Shown one piece after another: positions 13 through 5,079 of a DNA stretch of 5,079 nt. The notes under the pieces were generated by a model. That model was given only the letters and a program-made list of their open reading frames with translations. It did not search any database and was not told the origin of the DNA. Source of the stretch: a virus (lineage: Duplodnaviria; Heunggongvirae; Uroviricota; Caudoviricetes); the IMG/VR virus record IMGVR_UViG_2671180986_000013. One strand, written 5' to 3'. How positions within the stretch are numbered: the first letter of the stretch is position 1; each line of letters opens with the position of its first letter. The position numbers and the translations under genes were made by a program.

Positions 13-2511
13 TTAAGCGCAGCTATTTAGTGAATTAAGTAAATTAGTCAGTGACCTTGTAAAGTCTGTTAAACCTTCCTGTGAACCATCGAACATTAAG
101 GCCAGATTATTATTCCATGAATTACTTAAGCGGCCTAACTGCGTCTGAGTAGAGTTAATAATCTTTTCCCATCCACCAGCTTTATCAATCATCCTTCCCA
201 TTTCAGCGGATACTTTAGGAAGAACATCTTTAGAAAGAACCTTACCGTCTTTCATGGCCTTGTCTAATTCTTCCGTAGTCATCCCAAGACTTCTGGCAAA
301 TAACTGAAAAGCACCTGCCATTCTGTCACCTAATTGACCGCGTAGCTCTTCAGCCTGAATCTTTCCTTTAGATGCCATCTGCTCGAAAGCTTTTAAAATC
401 CCGTTAATTTCATCGGTGCTTAGCCCCATTAATCTGGATGTACCAATCACATTAGAAAATAAGGATTCTTTCTGGTCTGCATTCATATCACCAGCACCAG
501 CGGAAAACTTAGCAAAACTGCTTAATGTTTCAATCTGGTCTACACCACTACTATCAGCAAGATTCTTAACAAATTCTGTAGCTCGTTTAGCACCTTCATC
601 ACCTAAAACGAATTGTGCCGCTCGTTGTGATGCTTCTTTTTTCAGACCAACCTCCATAATCCGCCTGTAAGCTTCTAAGGCTGTCTGAAAACTATAAATG
701 GCTGTACCTGCTTTGATTGCACTCGTAGCTAATACATCCAGACTATTTGAAGCATTTTCACTGTGATTATTTTTGCTGGTGGTCTTGTTAAACTTAGAAA
801 GTGTTTCACGAAGAGACTGATTTAACTTTGCTAACTCACGATTAAAAGTTTCGTTTCCAAGTGTCTTGGATTTACTGCTTAAGCTGTAATACTGGCTTTT
901 AAAATACTTCTCAAGCATAGGATTAAAGTCACGAAGCTTGCTCATATTCGCTGAGTAAGCTGCTGTGATTGCTCTGCTTCCGCTAATTCGTGGCTGTCTT
1001 GGTTGTCTAAGTGGCTTTAAAGTATCCTCAATTTCAGTTTTAATCTTAAACGCTCTAGTGTTTTTAAGACGCTGCTCAATCTTGGAAACAGTTTTATCGA
1101 CATTTCTTTCCATTAGTTTGAGAGAATCATTTAAAGGCGTAGGATTAACTCTAAACGACTTATTCAATCGCTTCTCAATTCGTGATGCTACCTGCATCGT
1201 TTGTTTCTCGGCTTTTTCCAAGCCTTTTAAAACTTTCTGAGAGTTAAAACTTNNNNNNNNNNNNNNNNNNNNNNNNNNNNNNNNNNNNNNNNNNNNNNNN
1301 NNNNNNNNNNNNNNNNNNNNNNNNNNNNNNNNNNNNNNNNNNNNNNNNNNNNNNNNNNNNNNNNNNNNNNNNNNNNNNNNNNNNNNNNNNNNNNNNNNNN
1401 NNNNNNNNNNNNNNNNNNNNNNNNNNNNNNNNNNNNNNNNNNNNNNNNNNNNNNNNNNNNNNNNNNNNNNNNNNNNNNNNNNNNNNNNNNNNNNNNNNNN
1501 NNNNNNNNNNNNNNNNNNNNNNNNNNNNNNNNNNNNNNNNNNNNNNNNNNNNNNNNNNNNNNNNNNNNNNNNNNNNNNNNNNNNNNNNNNNNNNNNNNNN
1601 NNNNNNNNNNNNNNNNNNNNNNNNNNNNNNNNNNNNNNNNNNNNNNNNNNNNNNNNNNNNNNNNNNNNNNNNNNNNNNNNNNNNNNNNNNNNNNNNNNNN
1701 NNNNNNNNNNNNNNNNNNNNNNNNNNNNNNNNNNNNNNNNNNNNNNNNNNNNNNNNNNNNNNNNNNNNNNNNNNNNNNNNNNNNNNNNNNNNNNNNNNNN
1801 NNNNNNNNNNNNNNNNNNNNNNNNNNNNNNNNNNNNNNNNNNNNNNNNNNNNNNNNNNNNNNNNNNNNNNNNNNNNNNNNNNNNNNNNNNNNNNNNNNNN
1901 NNNNNNNNNNNNNGTTCTTTTTTAAGCTTTTGCTTTAACTTATCCAGTTTACCGGAATAATGCTTAGTCAAATTAGCTTCAGCTAACTGAAGAATCTCTT
2001 CATCTGTTTTATCAGTCATCAGAATAAATTGACCAGAACCCCTTAATGCTTGTCTGACATCAATTAACCGGAACCCTTCAGGGATACTTTGAAGAACTTT
2101 AGGAACGTCTTCAATCGCTGTACCAAAACCATCATTAAAGTTTCCTTCATAATAGATAAACGGGTTTGACTTAATCTCGTAAGCAATATCATATTCTGAA
2201 GGTTTCGAGGTTTCTTCGAAGTTCTTAACAGCATCGTAAGCGACATCAAGTCTAAGACGCTGTGATTTTAAAGCTGGGTAATATTCACGCTCAAGCTCAA
2301 ATAGTGCTTCAGTTTTGCAGATATCAGGCATTTCTTGAGGCTCAGGAGACACAAAGGAAATTACCTTTGGTGACATCTTTAGCTCTTGCTCAAGCTCAAT
2401 GCGCTTGTCATGCTCTTGACGCTGAATAGTATGTAGCGGATGTTCACCCTGTGGTGACCAGTCTCCGAAGCTATCAACCTTTTTACCGTTAATATATAAA
2501 TCGTTTGTCAT
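13..2511 (-). CDS. putative phage tail tape-measure-domain protein (832 codons as represented; interior masked by N)
   Basis: Longest ORF in the window. ATG at 2511..2509 is preceded by GAGGA (plus 2519..2523) with a 7-nt spacer; stop TAA at 15..13. The C-terminal region (about residues 690-790: ...GILKAFEQMASKGKIQAEELRGQLGDRMAGAFQLFARSLGMTTEELDKAMKDGKVLSKDVL...) matches, from memory, the conserved tape-measure domain pattern of phage TMPs; upstream of it are K/E/Q-rich coiled-coil-like stretches. At both edges of the N run only this frame is open, and the two edges are in the same phase for a 661-nt gap, so a single ORF is plausible but a gene boundary inside the gap cannot be excluded. Confidence 0.55.
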   Translation of the reverse strand: MTNDLYINGKKVDSFGDWSPQGEHPLHTIQRQEHDKRIELEQELKMSPKVISFVSPEPQEMPDICKTEALFELEREYYPALKSQRLRLDVAYDAVKNFEETSKPSEYDIAYEIKSNPFIYYEGNFNDGFGTAIEDVPKVLQSIPEGFRLIDVRQALRGSGQFILMTDKTDEEILQLAEANLTKHYSGKLDKLKQKLKKEXXXXXXXXXXXXXXXXXXXXXXXXXXXXXXXXXXXXXXXXXXXXXXXXXXXXXXXXXXXXXXXXXXXXXXXXXXXXXXXXXXXXXXXXXXXXXXXXXXXXXXXXXXXXXXXXXXXXXXXXXXXXXXXXXXXXXXXXXXXXXXXXXXXXXXXXXXXXXXXXXXXXXXXXXXXXXXXXXXXXXXXXXXXXXXXXXXXXXXXXXXXXXXXXXXXXXXXXXXXXXSFNSQKVLKGLEKAEKQTMQVASRIEKRLNKSFRVNPTPLNDSLKLMERNVDKTVSKIEQRLKNTRAFKIKTEIEDTLKPLRQPRQPRISGSRAITAAYSANMSKLRDFNPMLEKYFKSQYYSLSSKSKTLGNETFNRELAKLNQSLRETLSKFNKTTSKNNHSENASNSLDVLATSAIKAGTAIYSFQTALEAYRRIMEVGLKKEASQRAAQFVLGDEGAKRATEFVKNLADSSGVDQIETLSSFAKFSAGAGDMNADQKESLFSNVIGTSRLMGLSTDEINGILKAFEQMASKGKIQAEELRGQLGDRMAGAFQLFARSLGMTTEELDKAMKDGKVLSKDVLPKVSAEMGRMIDKAGGWEKIINSTQTQLGRLSNSWNNNLALMFDGSQEGLTDFTRSLTNLLNSLNSCA
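1253..1913. other. run of 661 N (masked or unresolved sequence) inside the large ORF
   Basis: Directly visible. Length is not a multiple of 3, but codon phase is preserved across it in the only open frame, which suggests exact-length masking rather than an arbitrary assembly gap. Confidence 0.99.
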
Positions 2512-2535
2512 TATAATTTCCTCTAAGTGTGGTTA

Positions 2536-2550
2536 TTTCTTAATAGAGCA
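2536..2550. repeat. inverted copy of the 15-mer TGCTCTATTAAGAAA that heads each A repeat
   Basis: Plus 2536..2550 tttcttaatagagca is the exact reverse complement of plus 2599..2613 and 3201..3215 (tgctctattaagaaa). It lies 25-39 nt upstream of the large ORF start codon, on its coding strand. Confidence 0.8.
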
Positions 2551-2598
2551 CCTTCAACGCCAATACACTTAGAAGATGACTTAACGATTTATTAAAGA

Positions 2599-2719
2599 TG
2601 CTCTATTAAGAAAAGCCCTAAACATAATCTGTGAAGGGCTTTGGAGGTTTGCTTATAACGTTAACGAAGTTTCAGGAAAACTTTCTTTAAAAGCTCTGTT
2701 TAAAAACTCTTAAAGAAAG
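2599..2719. repeat. direct repeat A, copy 1 (121 bp, identical to 3201..3321)
   Basis: Base-by-base comparison of 2599..2719 with 3201..3321 gives 121/121 identity; the copies diverge immediately after (t at 2720, c at 3322). Confidence 0.95.
2605..2642 (-). terminator. candidate rho-independent terminator (minus-strand sense) inside A copy 1
   Basis: Stem aaagccct (2612..2619) pairs with agggcttt (2635..2642) around a 15-nt loop; on the minus strand the GC core GCCCU/AGGGC is followed by UUUUCUU. Short stem, so moderate support. Confidence 0.4.
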
Positions 2720-2749
2720 TTTTCCTGAAACTTCGTTAACGTTATAAGC
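2651..2749. repeat. perfect 40-bp inverted repeat (palindrome) with 19-nt spacer
   Basis: 2651..2690 gcttataacgttaacgaagtttcaggaaaactttctttaa is the exact reverse complement of 2710..2749; loop 2691..2709. The left arm and loop belong to repeat A; the right arm is unique to this copy and is followed directly by 11 N. Confidence 0.9.
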
Positions 2750-2760
2750 NNNNNNNNNNN
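2750..2760. other. run of 11 N abutting the palindrome
   Basis: Directly visible; a single ambiguous base also occurs at 3200 immediately before A copy 2. Confidence 0.99.
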
Positions 2761-2762
2761 GC

Positions 2763-2936
2763 TTAAAAAAAGAACAAATGGTAGTGTCCGCTATTGCCAG
2801 TACACCTCAATGGACCTTTATTTACTTCGTGTGATTCCCGCCAAGCTCTATCAAAAGATTCACGCAAAGTTAATTCGTGAATATCAAGTGCACTTGGTCT
2901 GTGTTCGATAAGCATTTCATGTTCATTTCTAATCAT
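2763..2936 (-). CDS. hypothetical small protein (57 aa)
   Basis: Minus-strand ORF MIRNEHEMLIEHRPSALDIHELTLRESFDRAWRESHEVNKGPLRCTGNSGHYHLFFF, hand-translated (below the ORF-track size cut-off). ATG at 2936..2934 is preceded by AAGGGGTGA with a 5-nt spacer; stop TAA at 2765..2763. A TATAAAT motif sits about 32 nt upstream on the minus strand (plus 2968..2974). No recognisable domain. Confidence 0.35.
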   Translation of the reverse strand: MIRNEHEMLIEHRPSALDIHELTLRESFDRAWRESHEVNKGPLRCTGNSGHYHLFFF

Positions 2937-3040
2937 TCGTTCACCCCTTAGTTTATTTGTTATTTCAATTTATAGAAGCACACTCAGCAATCAGAGGTGA
3001 AGAGTCTGACTGAACAAGAACCTGCCAAGTGTGCTTTTAA

Positions 3041-3075
3041 AAACTGAAAAAGCCCTAAACATTTCTGTGAAGGGC
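3041..3075 (-). terminator. candidate rho-independent terminator (minus-strand sense)
   Basis: Stem gccct (3052..3056) pairs with agggc (3071..3075) around a 14-nt loop aaacatttctgtga; the minus-strand RNA continues UUUUUCAGUUUUU (plus 3041..3051). The loop is nearly identical to the hairpin loop inside repeat A. Confidence 0.5.
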
Positions 3076-3077
3076 AA

Positions 3078-3199
3078 AGGATTCAATAATGAATGAACAA
3101 GAGTACTTTTTGAGATAGCCTCTCAGACTAACCTGAAAGGCCATGACGAAAAGCATTGCACCTTTCCAACTCAGAATATCCATCCATCGGATTATTGAA
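3078..3199. repeat. repeat B, copy 1 (about 122 bp)
   Basis: Aligns with 3351..3471 with one short indel (gagtac vs agac) and three substitutions (t/c at 3129 vs 3400; cat vs tag at 3141..3143 vs 3412..3414). Ends are a 9-bp inverted pair, ttcaataat (3082..3090) and attattgaa (3191..3199). Confidence 0.9.
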
Positions 3200-3200
3200 N

Positions 3201-3321
3201 TGCTCTATTAAGAAAAGCCCTAAACATAATCTGTGAAGGGCTTTGGAGGTTTGCTTATAACGTTAACGAAGTTTCAGGAAAACTTTCTTTAAAAGCTCTG
3301 TTTAAAAACTCTTAAAGAAAG
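3201..3321. repeat. direct repeat A, copy 2 (121 bp, identical to 2599..2719)
   Basis: 121/121 identity with copy 1; contains the same left palindrome arm and loop but only the first 10 nt of the right arm (3312..3321). Confidence 0.95.
3207..3244 (-). terminator. candidate rho-independent terminator (minus-strand sense) inside A copy 2
   Basis: Same hairpin as in A copy 1 (stem 3214..3221 / 3237..3244, 15-nt loop), followed on the minus strand by UUUUCUU. Confidence 0.4.
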
Positions 3322-3341
3322 CCCTAACTCATGATTAGGGC
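3312..3341 (-). terminator. candidate rho-independent terminator (minus-strand sense)
   Basis: Stem gccctaa (3321..3327) pairs with ttagggc (3335..3341) around a 7-nt loop ctcatga; the minus-strand RNA continues UUUCUUUAAG (plus 3312..3320). Confidence 0.5.
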
Positions 3342-3350
3342 AAAGCTGTA

Positions 3351-3471
3351 AAGGATTCAATAATGAATGAACAAAGACTTTTTGAGATAGCCTCTCAGAC
3401 CAACCTGAAAGGCTAGGACGAAAAGCATTGCACCTTTCCAACTCAGAATATCCATCCATCGGATTATTGAA
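3351..3471. repeat. repeat B, copy 2 (about 121 bp)
   Basis: See B copy 1; about 95% identical, with the same 9-bp terminal inverted pair (3355..3363 and 3462..3470). Confidence 0.9.
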
Positions 3472-3497
3472 AGAAAAAATAAGAGAGAATTGCTCTC
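3471..3497 (-). terminator. small hairpin plus U-tract in the first ~30 nt of the predicted transcript (possible attenuator)
   Basis: Minus-strand sequence GGGGAGAGCAAUUCUCUCUUAUUUUUUCUUUC: stem GAGAG/CUCUC (plus 3483..3497) with a 5-nt loop, followed by UUAUUUUUU. The stem is only 5 bp, so support is weak. Confidence 0.3.
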
Positions 3498-3510
3498 CCC
3501 CATATATACA

Positions 3511-3539
3511 ATTATGTCATGCTCAAGGTTGTTTGTCAA
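3511..3539 (-). promoter_or_regulatory. near-consensus sigma70-type promoter (TTGACA, 17-nt spacer, extended -10 TGaCATAAT)
   Basis: Minus strand reads TTGACA (plus 3534..3539), a 17-nt spacer AACAACCTTGAGCATGA, then CATAAT (plus 3511..3516) with TG two bases upstream of the -10; an AT-rich stretch lies upstream of the -35. Predicted start near plus 3503, transcribing toward lower coordinates into the repeats. Confidence 0.55.
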
Positions 3540-3563
3540 CAGCTTTTAACAGATTGGTAACAT

Positions 3564-3629
3564 TTATACTTTAATAGATGCACCTGCAATCATACCAATC
3601 AATACAAAACAGATAATCACCAATTCCAT
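3564..3629 (-). CDS. 21-aa hydrophobic peptide (predicted single transmembrane helix)
   Basis: Hand-translated minus-strand ORF MELVIICFVLIGMIAGASIKV with stop TAA at 3566..3564. Its ATG (3629..3627) shares one base with the TAA stop of the upstream gene (TAATG) and is preceded by AGGTGG with a 7-nt spacer. Too short for the ORF track; coding status is not proven. Confidence 0.4.
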   Translation of the reverse strand: MELVIICFVLIGMIAGASIKV

Positions 3630-3952
3630 TAATGCACCACCTTCGAATCCGTCACCAGAATATTATCGCTATACAAAATTGCTATAGCCGCCTTGAGATA
3701 TTTTTCAGGGCTAACGCTGTATTTGTTCGTTTCTTCGATAATAAGACGCTTCATGTTTGAGTCGGTAACAGGAAACATAAAACGCGGTTCACCAGTTTCA
3801 ATTTCCTGAATAAAGTCTTCAATTTCTTCTGAGTTTTCAGCCATTAGCTTTAGTAATTTATCAAGGTCAATTGATACACCGGAATCAGCGAAAGCCTGCA
3901 CCATCATAGCAGTGTCGCTATCAATGAAAATCTGTAATTCATATTCGTTCAT
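3629..3952 (-). CDS. hypothetical acidic protein (107 aa)
   Basis: ORF-track entry 3629..3985 trimmed to ATG at 3952..3950, which has AAGGAG 9 nt upstream; the track start is a TTG inside a GAGGAGG motif. Product MNEYELQIFIDSDTAMMVQAFADSGVSIDLDKLLKLMAENSEEIEDFIQEIETGEPRF... has roughly 21 acidic versus 10 basic residues. No recognisable domain. Confidence 0.65.
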   Translation of the reverse strand: MNEYELQIFIDSDTAMMVQAFADSGVSIDLDKLLKLMAENSEEIEDFIQEIETGEPRFMFPVTDSNMKRLIIEETNKYSVSPEKYLKAAIAILYSDNILVTDSKVVH

Positions 3953-4130
3953 TTTTAAAATCTCCTTTTTACCAGACCTCCTCAATCGCTCTGTAACGAG
4001 CTAAACAGTCTTTTTCAGGGGTAGCCTGTACAGTGGTATTACCCACCCTAAAATAAGATAGTTTTTTGCGTTAGAATGCGATTGAGAGCGTCTGATAAGC
4101 TGTTTTTCTAATTTCTCTTAAAGTCTCGGA

Positions 4131-4331
4131 CTACCAATAACCTAATTCCGCTTTATTTCGTTCAAACCATTCCGCTGTAACTGCTGTCTTTAGTGTTGCG
4201 TTTGGGCTGGTGGCATGAATGAAGATATCTTTTGGATTGCAAGCATCACCGAAACCACCTTCTTTGATGAGCAGGTCTGATACATGCTTAATCATTTTAT
4301 CTGTCAAATATTCGAATTTAATACATAACAT
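4131..4331 (-). CDS. hypothetical protein (66 aa)
   Basis: ORF-track entry 4131..4364 trimmed to ATG at 4331..4329 (MLCIKFEYLTDKMIKHVSDLLIKEGGFGDACNPKDIFIHATSPNATLKTAVTAEWFERNKAELGYW). GGAG lies 5 nt upstream and the ATG overlaps the HNH gene stop (TAATG). Stop TAG at 4133..4131. Confidence 0.55.
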   Translation of the reverse strand: MLCIKFEYLTDKMIKHVSDLLIKEGGFGDACNPKDIFIHATSPNATLKTAVTAEWFERNKAELGYW

Positions 4332-4603
4332 TAAATCTCCAGGAGTAAATTGTTTGGGTGGCAATTTCTTTTATTACCATCCCTGAAGATAATCTTTTTA
4401 GTTGCCTGAACTTCATGATGCAAAAACCAGATGACATACTTCAGATAATAATCACGAGTGCCATAACGAATCATTGGATTACCGTAAGCATCATCTCTTG
4501 TCTTAACCTCTCCACCATCAATCCATTCAAGCATTCCTGTCTCATAATTAATCATGAAGTAAGTTGCAAAGAACCGTTTAATATCATCTCGCCATTGCTT
4601 CAT
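4331..4603 (-). CDS. small HNH-family endonuclease (HNH_3-like), 90 aa
   Basis: ATG at 4603..4601 preceded by AGGAGG with a 7-nt spacer. The C-terminal half YLKYVIWFLHHEVQATKKIIFRDGNKRNCHPNNL resembles the HNH_3 signature (..vHrlva..f.....vnH.DGNK.NN...NL), but Arg replaces the usual first His before DGNK and the protein ends straight after NL. Confidence 0.55.
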   Translation of the reverse strand: MKQWRDDIKRFFATYFMINYETGMLEWIDGGEVKTRDDAYGNPMIRYGTRDYYLKYVIWFLHHEVQATKKIIFRDGNKRNCHPNNLLLEI

Positions 4604-4605
4604 AA

Positions 4606-4884
4606 TCAGACCTCCTGAGACAGTTTGTGAATTTTGATACTTAGTAACCTTGCTAAATCCAGTCCAAAAGCATTTAAGGATTTCAGACTATCAAGGTCAT
4701 CTTGCTTAATCCTGATATGGTGTCTTGCAGCCTCTAAGCGACTATTAAGCAAATCCTGTTCGTTAATATCACGGTTAATTGCAAGCTTCATCACTGCTGA
4801 GTGTGGCAGACCTGTAATGTTTTTGATTCGGTTCAGTTCATCAAAGGCTGTCTTTGTAACTCTGGTTAATGTGTGTTTATTCAT
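4606..4884 (-). CDS. putative ribbon-helix-helix (CopG/Arc-like) DNA-binding protein, 92 aa
   Basis: ATG at 4884..4882 preceded by GAGGA with a 7-nt spacer. The N-terminus HTLTRVTKTAFDELNRIKNITGLPHSAVMKLAINR fits a strand / helix / loop / helix RHH pattern. Stop TGA at 4608..4606, 2 nt before the HNH start and overlapping its RBS. Confidence 0.4.
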   Translation of the reverse strand: MNKHTLTRVTKTAFDELNRIKNITGLPHSAVMKLAINRDINEQDLLNSRLEAARHHIRIKQDDLDSLKSLNAFGLDLARLLSIKIHKLSQEV

Positions 4885-5079
4885 TTAAAAATCCTCTGTA
4901 ACTAAATAGGGGTCAAACTCGAAATCTGGTTGCTCGTTTTCCATTGGCTCAATATTCCCAACGGCAATATGATGTTCAACAATGCCAATTAATTTCGCGC
5001 ACATCACAGCAAGCAAAGCGCAATATTTATCGCTTGGTAATTCGTAACTGGATTTGCCCCTATATTTCCAGACATCTGT
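4885..5079 (-). CDS. C-terminal fragment of a hypothetical protein (N-terminus beyond window edge)
   Basis: Minus-strand frame open from the window edge to TAA at 4887..4885 (...CALLAVMCAKLIGIVEHHIAVGNIEPMENEQPDFEFDPYLVTEDF); the stop is immediately followed by the ATG of the next gene (TAAATG). Confidence 0.4.
   Translation of the reverse strand, partial: TDVWKYRGKSSYELPSDKYCALLAVMCAKLIGIVEHHIAVGNIEPMENEQPDFEFDPYLVTEDF

Follow-up and report, generated by a model that had tools for sequence, protein, structure and literature searches.

Interleaved repeats in an IMG/VR virus record are very probably an assembly artefact over a conserved single-copy leader of Escherichia coli islands

In lambdoid phages, the late promoter PR' is a strong, constitutive-type promoter lying directly behind an upstream gene block. 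Its ~190-nt untranslated transcript, the 6S RNA, runs to the intrinsic terminator tR', and the late structural genes need read-through, with Q as antiterminator. The satellite P4 likewise has a constitutive promoter (PLE) and a long structured untranslated leader with the CI RNA (C4 family, RF01695), and this leader decides whether transcription reaches the downstream genes. The promoter-early stem-loops (PeSLs) of T4-type phages consist of an early-type sigma70 promoter followed by a stem-loop, look cassette-like and recombinogenic, occur in multiple copies per phage genome, and flank small variable open reading frames (ORFs). Bacterial attenuator leaders carry GC hairpins with U-runs, as in intrinsic terminators, between the promoter and the first gene. 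Here we analyse a leader resembling these systems in IMGVR_UViG_2671180986_000013, a 5,079-nt record assigned to the Caudoviricetes (the window, at its full length). An initial annotation had described a ~1-kb repeat-rich leader at 2599-3539, in which a near-consensus promoter reads through interleaved copies of two units, A and B, and several terminators towards a tape-measure-like gene. Judging from the sequence, the interleaving is very probably an assembly artefact, with two related island copies stitched together across N gaps. Taken as a whole, the two-layer explanation, assembly artefact plus single-copy leader, is one we consider likely.

The repeats were found in the given sequence as the initial annotation reported them. 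On the plus strand, A1 and A2 (Table 1) are identical at 121/121 positions, B1 and B2 share 97% identity over 95 nt (3105-3199 and 3377-3471), and one 25-mer occurs at both 3076-3100 and 3350-3374. Four GC hairpins with U-runs (-11 to -14 kcal/mol, z ~ -3 to -3.6) lie on the minus strand, as do all long ORFs of the window. A further "B-remnant" unit (~2583-2598) proved to be a mere ~12-nt resemblance, unreported by the repeat finder, inside a conserved stem of the 5' untranslated region (5'UTR). An 11-N run at 2750-2760 and a single n at 3200 both fall precisely on repeat-unit junctions, so the repeat block is not continuous DNA. Just before the longer gap, 2720-2749 is the reverse complement of 2651-2680, with arms of 43 nt that are 98% complementary, and this foldback is seeded at, or centred on, the natural hairpin loop of unit A. 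A 32-mer specific to the foldback had no match in IMG/VR, and the continuation of A into it was observed in no other homologous locus. Patterns specific to the junctions, the foldback, and the promoter did not turn up the source assembly in IMG/VR or in the metagenome collection. When the whole window was scanned with Rfam cmscan (E up to 1), the foldback and the type-b 5'UTR stem drew miRNA-type matches, all sub-threshold. MIR1888, MIR7696, mir-4659, and others scored 30-52 bits, below their gathering scores, at 2652-2748 on both strands; these are generic matches to a long near-perfect foldback hairpin. One sub-threshold Streptococcus small RNA (sRNA) match (SpF44) also lay on the foldback, and a tRNA scan of the window found nothing.

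Insertion sequence (IS) ends stand at the contig boundaries. The body of IS600, whose end follows the foldback, would point into the gap at 2750-2760, and the last 31 bases of the window (5049-5079) are an IS2 end. This suggests an IS-rich, Shigella-like or enteroinvasive E. coli-like draft genome broken at insertion sequences. A longer run of 661 N (1253-1913) exceeds the real distance in relatives by 93-174 nt, which rules out an equal-length mask and identifies the run as an estimated scaffold gap. The 832-aa ORF that spans it (13..2511, minus strand) is an artificial fusion; in relatives the same stretch holds three genes, for a 236-aa protein, a 67-aa protein, and the tape measure protein. 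The leader had been proposed to control entry into this tape-measure-like gene, yet the first gene is really ~236 aa. As a separate observation, the tape measure fragment at 29-1252 is 94% identical to islands of the L004/L005 type (loci carry L numbers) and only 87% to L094, while 1914-2718 is 96% identical to L094; given these unequal similarities, the two sides of the 661-N gap may come from different islands.

To set against the window we had 92 homologous loci: three complete E. coli genomes, 13 IMG/VR contigs (the same set being recovered by a B-core pattern and by a promoter pattern), one E. albertii contig (the sole return of a contig scan with the 107-aa upstream protein), and 75 metagenome contigs retrieved by the promoter pattern. 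Four further contigs, L094-L097, were fetched via the closest homologue of the window's 236-aa gene. All 92 loci have the same order: promoter, B, an optional block of T1 + A, a T2-type hairpin, a long 5'UTR stem, a ribosome-binding site (RBS), and the gene, where T1 and T2 are terminator-like hairpins. Each locus has one B and at most one A, and two A or two B units were observed in none. The window's arrangement was likewise found in 0 of 5,426 complete E. coli genomes, the best of which covers 86% of window 1914-5079, in four pieces. In the loci most similar to window 1914-2718 (96% identity), the intergenic region is 528 nt long and present once. When window 1914-2718 and 3192-5049 are placed on L094, their matches overlap in exactly the stretch of A, and merging the two flanking segments on A (X, up to 2749, and Z, from 3201 onward) yields a 521-nt region colinear with the relatives. 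Neither uninterrupted copies nor recurrence in independent assemblies, as expected of a genuine duplication, was observed, with Ns standing at 2750-2760 and 3200. A1 would most likely be the same genomic A as 3201-3321, written twice through contig overlap.

Segment Y (2810-3199), which lies between the gaps, comes from another, allelic island: all 390 nt match 9091-9480 of the IMG/VR contig L015 at 100% identity, and identity to L004 is 95.9%. L015 and L004 represent this second allelic type, in which A is missing, and in L015 the B1 sequence runs directly into its own 5' stem-loop (SL1) and promoter, not into A. The 57-aa ORF of the initial annotation opens with the first 42 codons of the allelic gene (90% identity to the L004 protein) and then reads on into IS600; as proteins, the two gene alleles are 27% identical. 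Two islands do occur in one genome, as in NZ_CP180694.1, which has matches at 0.24 Mb and 0.87 Mb.

The window would then join short-read contigs into a scaffold, their source being an IS-rich genome of E. coli/Shigella type with two related ~11-kb islands. In plus-strand order, contig X would comprise the gene, the type-a 5'UTR, A, and the foldback. Contig Y (2761-3199) would hold the IS600 end, the truncated allelic gene, the type-b 5'UTR, a hairpin, and B1; its source would be the second island, with IS600 sitting in the first late gene there. Contig Z would comprise A, T1, B2, the promoter, and the upstream genes. X and Z, sharing A, would be one locus, and the scaffolder would have threaded Y between them because Y is paralogous. 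The X/Z overlap and the threaded Y would together produce both the interleaved A/B pattern and the 121/121 identity. The B/A/B/A architecture had been read as biological, with recent duplication, gene conversion, or selection behind the perfect A identity; neither reading is supported for a unit that is single-copy in 92 loci, matches no complete E. coli genome in this arrangement, and is joined through N gaps. The possibility also raised in the initial annotation, that the repeats are unique to one assembly and misjoined at the Ns, is the one the comparison favours. Perfect repeats flanked by Ns beside IS ends in draft scaffolds should not be taken as biology.

What remains is a module in which a strong, conserved promoter, a structured RNA of ~190 nt, and terminators in tandem precede the tail genes of a compact island. 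The promoter has an extended -10 TG and matches the sigma70 consensus at 11/12 positions, as first described. More than 90 loci conserve it; 88 loci were retrieved by pattern, and L002-L004 and L094-L097 were collected without reference to it. It is nearly invariant, with a degenerate -10 in the E. albertii locus (L018). The transcription start site (TSS) is predicted at ~3504, and no further minus-strand sigma70-like site was found between 3510 and 2512. The promoter sits right behind a same-strand upstream gene block, and the upstream operon lacks its own terminator ahead of it. Across 85 complete leaders the TSS-to-ATG distance is 282-481 nt (median 407), well short of the ~1 kb first proposed, and the non-coding leader from promoter to terminator is 186-284 nt across loci.

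The leader begins with SL1, followed by a variable linker of (GATG)n repeats with optional ~28-nt hairpin inserts, and by the core, which lies directly 5' of the central hairpin. The core is intact in 72 of 75 aligned leaders, promoter-only finds included, and the other three have a one-base deletion in its A-run. The outer stem of the central hairpin, GCUUUU/AAAAGU, is invariant, and the inner stem differs by compensatory changes among at least four cassette types. SL1 and the central hairpin both emerged from RNAalifold applied to 75 distinct leaders, and pair counts were made on a specified structure. SL1 (helix 1) was paired in 99% of cells with compensatory changes in 3/5 pairs, and the central hairpin (helices 4 and 5) in 100% of cells with 4/9 inner pairs changed on both sides. 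Both-sided changes amounted to 62 cells in seven pairs; column shuffles gave 17 ± 4.8 cells, with 0/500 reaching 62, while 17/500 reached seven pairs. Controls with slid partners gave at most 11 both-sided cells and pairing in at most 62% of cells. Compensatory changes thus exceed the controls for SL1 and the central hairpin, which answers the folding and covariation check that had been proposed; the long-range stem found no such support.

SL1 is probably a 5' stabilising or structural hairpin. As a terminator it was ruled out, its U-run not being conserved (TAAAATCA and TGAATTAA variants). A long-range stem closing the B domain (UUCAAUAAU with AUUAUUGAA, or GAUG repeats with CAUU repeats) was seen in a single-sequence fold only. 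Pairing of the core (GAAAGGUGC) with the 5' arm of the UTR stems was dropped, the core being nearly invariant and the arms of three unrelated types. B as a coding region was also ruled out: frames differ between B1 and B2, and indels and cassettes break any ORF. No Rfam family matched the leader.

A stable GC hairpin stands directly before a U-rich tract at T1, at T2, and at the segment Y hairpin. T1 is present in most A-carrying loci and would end a leader RNA of ~190 nt. A2 holds T2 as well as an 18-21-bp hairpin (3283-3321) whose 5' arm is the T1 U-tract; the short-type loci L004, L008, L015, and L020 have no unit A, nor does segment Y. Between TSS and ATG, at least one GC hairpin with a U-run was found in 82 of 85 leaders, and two in 59. 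The initial annotation had placed several terminators in series on one transcript; the loci support one or two intrinsic-terminator-like hairpins per leader. In the type-a 5'UTR, a stem-loop at 2537-2612 has at least 21 contiguous bp (-33 kcal/mol, z -6.2), its 5' arm being the T2 U-tract. Stems of types b and c (-31.9 and -49.9 kcal/mol, c including its terminator) are unrelated in sequence and analogous in structure.

Two side observations concern these hairpins. The 21-nt T1 hairpin occurs as its exact reverse complement in about one third of loci (GCCCTAACTCATGATTAGGGC versus GCCCTAATCATGAGTTAGGGC), the stem being kept and the loop flipped; the variant set was noted in L002, L010, L011, L014, L017, and others. 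Each terminator-like hairpin also stands directly before a ~20-27-bp stem that uses the terminator U-tract as its 5' arm. Such stems were observed at window 2537-2612, 2963-3049, and 3283-3321, in the L006 leader, and in three unrelated 5'UTR cassette types, and they may be RNase III-type processing or stabilising sites.

The single-copy locus is read from window 3539 to 3201 and then from 2598 to 2512. From its elements we infer transcription, termination, gating, and a trigger as follows, with a confidence in this terminator-gated mechanism that falls a little short of even. The constitutive-looking promoter would drive a ~190-nt untranslated structured RNA made up of the 5' stem-loop, the single-stranded core, and the central hairpin, or a ~290-nt RNA if T1 is read through. 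Most RNA polymerases would stop at T1 and/or T2. The operon for the 236-aa, 67-aa, tape measure, and Dit-like proteins would be expressed only by read-through because it lacks a sigma70-type promoter of its own. Read-through presumably needs a processive antitermination signal from the island or from an infecting helper phage, the helper factor being a guess, and the long stems that start in the terminator U-tracts may process or stabilise the read-through mRNA. The structured non-coding or attenuating leader of the initial annotation was thus right in general class: a promoter into untranslated RNA, with one or two terminator-like hairpins before a long gene. A bolder joint claim is possible and, in our judgement, rather doubtful. 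It holds the leader to be an undescribed early-to-late switch RNA of undescribed, satellite-type ~11-kb serine-recombinase islands of E. coli, Shigella, Salmonella, and E. albertii, with the tail operon unlocked by antitermination on helper infection and GAAAGGUGCAAU as the recognition site. These islands carry a tape measure protein, a Dit-like protein, and few small genes only; if the gate does answer a helper phage, it would show how a minimal element carrying tail genes times their expression.

Several points weigh against parts of this two-layer account. Few recombining cassette types account for the compensatory changes, and the number of independent events is correspondingly small; the long-range closing stem (helices 2 and 3) has no comparative support across loci. 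The U-tracts are interrupted (UUUCUUUAAG, UUUUCUUAAU), which weakens confidence in termination efficiency. No antiterminator, whether of Q/N type or another regulator, was found among the upstream island proteins with Pfam, NCBIfam, and PADLOC. X is 96% identical to L094 and Z 86%, and the two may come from different islands that share an identical A. The doubled arrangement could even be real, if co-resident islands had recombined and an IS600 insertion had left a composite leader that carries A and B twice each. The family is highly mosaic, two islands can share one genome, and the given sequence does show the arrangement; still, we consider this improbable, given that all three junctions are Ns, that a foldback precedes one of them, and that the next segment starts with just 49 nt of a ~1.3-kb IS. 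Even with the contigs in the right order, the IS600 body would lie in the 11-N gap, hence there would be no single compact leader. Neither the 92 loci nor the 5,426 complete genomes contain the arrangement, and in L015, identical at 100%, B1 natively has a promoter, not A, on its right. Recently duplicated, shuffled promoter/stem-loop cassettes flanking variable small ORFs, on the pattern of T4 PeSLs, had been suggested as well. Cassette modularity is real here (optional 28-30-nt hairpin inserts, the optional T1 + A block, three 5'UTR types), but each island has one promoter and one cassette series, the supposed variable small ORF is a truncated allele of the downstream gene, and INPHARED phages share nothing beyond IS600. 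The element is an integrative island with serine recombinases and not a T4-type phage, and we regard the PeSL reading as very improbable.

The module could also be a free-standing sRNA gene, of intergenic or 3'UTR type, in which promoter, B, and terminator form a unit that shares its terminator with the upstream operon. Its RNA would work in trans, with helper-phage or host mRNAs as conceivable targets of the single-stranded GAAAGGUGCAAU, and gating of the operon would be incidental. The strong promoter with a terminator within 186-284 nt, the nearly invariant core adjoining covarying hairpins, and an upstream operon without its own terminator before the promoter all fit such a gene. Against it, the tail operon has no sigma70-like promoter of its own, so the terminators necessarily gate the operon too. 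Short, interrupted U-tails are atypical of Hfq-dependent sRNAs, no Rfam family matched, and no target was found, the pairing of core and 5'UTR stem having been considered and dropped. We hold the sRNA reading to be possible without being likely; gating and a trans-acting sRNA are not mutually exclusive.

Table 1. Positions of the features discussed (window coordinates unless a locus is named)
Feature	Position	Strand	Remarks
First 199 codons of the ~236-aa first operon gene	1914..2511	-	cut by the 661-N gap
Type-a 5'UTR	2512..2612	-	RBS AGAGGAAA, ATG at 2511
Unit A, copy A1	2599..2719	-	contiguous with 5'UTR and gene
Foldback artefact, then 11-N scaffold gap	2720..2760		foldback 2720-2749
IS600 terminal 49 nt	2761..2809	-	IS3-family end, TGAGGTGTACTGGC...; annotated IS600 features under the matches
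Segment Y, second allelic island	2810..3199	-	allelic gene start, type-b 5'UTR stem, T2-type hairpin, B1
First 42 codons of the allelic ~234-aa gene	2810-2936	-	protein match
Type-b 5'UTR stem	2963-3049	-	in segment Y
T2-type hairpin of segment Y	3052-3075	-	-11.3 kcal/mol, then UUUUUCAG
Unit B1	3076-3199	-	in segment Y
Unit A, copy A2, optional cassette	3201..3321	-	contiguous with T1, B2, promoter
T2 hairpin	3214-3244 (A2), 2612-2642 (A1)	-	same sequence in both; -14.3 kcal/mol, then UUUUCUUAAU
T1, intrinsic-terminator-like hairpin	3321..3341	-	GCCCUAAUCAUGAGUUAGGGC, then UUUCUUUAAG; -11.4 kcal/mol, z -3.6
Central hairpin of B2	3377..3426	-	B1 copy 3105-3154
Core GAAAGGUGCAAU	3427..3438	-	nearly invariant, predicted single-stranded; B1 copy 3155-3166
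SL1, 5' stem-loop of the leader	3481..3501	-	-10 kcal/mol, z -3.7
Sigma70-type promoter	3511..3539	-	TTGACA, 17 nt, CATAAT, extended -10 TG; 11/12 matches
Island extents	L002 1043-12200; L003 767-11900; L004 468-11300		

The host element is a ~11-kb integrative island, found in yecE (L002) or between tonB and yciI (L003, L004). Strains with an intact copy include E. coli A0 34/86 (NZ_CP120567) and O111:H21 15A (NZ_CP077477). Its genes begin with a small serine recombinase, sometimes a Dam methylase, and small hypothetical genes ending with that of the 107-aa protein. After an intergenic region of ~430-580 nt, which holds the leader studied here, come the ~236-aa protein, the ~67-aa protein, TMP_3, and a Dit-like protein, the last two being tail-module genes by domain matches (TMP_3 and Dit_like); a convergent large serine recombinase ends the island. 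No capsid, terminase, tail tube, or lysis genes were annotated in it, and the island looks like a satellite-type or tail-interfering element. Our literature search for an E. coli satellite that combines tail proteins (tape measure and Dit) with a serine recombinase found no description of it. Of 5,426 complete E. coli genomes, at least 396 contain B-like DNA, and matches to the window at 84-92% identity run to thousands of E. coli chromosomes. Clustering at 90% identity divides the 236-aa family into 2,959 clusters, which come from E. coli, Shigella, Salmonella, and E. albertii. Among 50,697 INPHARED phage records, only 49-51 nt (2761-2811) matched, corresponding to IS600, and similarity searches of phages and plasmids together returned IS600 and IS2 ends only. 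The search for further A and B copies that had been proposed yielded single copies per island and none in phages.

Searches of Pfam, PHROGs, NCBIfam, and PADLOC assigned the 236-, 107-, 92-, 66-, and 185-aa proteins no function, and the 236-aa family as a whole (homologues P0001-P0120) had no Pfam, NCBIfam, PHROG, or PADLOC match. NCBI labels this family "transposase" without domain support, while its position is that of a tail-module gene; the name looks like annotation carry-over. Upstream of the promoter, an ORF for a 21-aa hydrophobic peptide (MELVIICFVLIGMIAGASIKV) lies at window 3564-3629 on the minus strand, its ATG overlapping the stop of the 107-aa gene (TAATG). Its position is kept in 17 aligned loci, with about three sequence types of 21-24 aa, and it ends ~25 nt before the -35. 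The adjacent 107-aa protein appears acidic from a reading of its sequence.

The islands are highly mosaic, cassettes such as the optional T1 + A block and the three 5'UTR types being reshuffled between loci. On a smaller scale, three short optional palindromic inserts, none of them in the window, come and go cleanly between otherwise alike leaders: a ~28-nt 5' hairpin (GGATAGTCTTCTATCC...), 28 nt before the core (GTGAGGTATGTTCTATACCGAACATTCT), and 30 nt in the T2 loop (GAGGATGATTCCATGAATATCCGAATCACC). They were observed at L003 6732-6955, L017 6170-6396, and L002 ~6713-6742. Tetranucleotide repeats, (GATG)n with 2-5 copies and (TCAT)n with 2-4 copies, also differ between loci (for example L037, L040, and L062); in the window they lie at 3450-3460 (GATG) and 3360-3372 (TCAT).

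Of the described systems, the leader shares with the PeSLs the promoter and stem-loop and the cassette-like look, but it is found once per island across 92 loci, in a small E. coli/Shigella island with no INPHARED match, and neither multiple dispersed copies nor a T4-type phage context was observed. It resembles attenuators in its hairpins between promoter and first gene, unlike them lacking a leader peptide, a recognisable antiterminator/anti-antiterminator pairing, and a riboswitch match. With the P4 leader it has in common a satellite-like element, a constitutive-looking promoter, and a long structured untranslated transcript. RF01695, in contrast, had no cmscan match in the whole window at E up to 1, internal complementary repeats of the seqA/seqB/seqC type are lacking, and termination here looks intrinsic rather than dependent on RNA-RNA pairing. 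By sequence anatomy alone, the leader matches the lambdoid late-promoter module in three respects: a strong promoter behind an upstream gene block, a short leader that would terminate at ~190 nt, and late structural genes for which read-through is predicted. The leader differs from that module in having no phage sequence similarity, in usually carrying two terminators, each followed by a long stem, in an initially transcribed region that is SL1, and in lying within a ~11-kb island instead of a complete prophage; no Q-family antiterminator was found among the 107-, 66-, 90-, 92-, and 185-aa proteins of L002 (Pfam, NCBIfam, PHROG). Belonging to no described family, the leader is an undescribed instance of a familiar kind, the promoter-proximal terminated leader.

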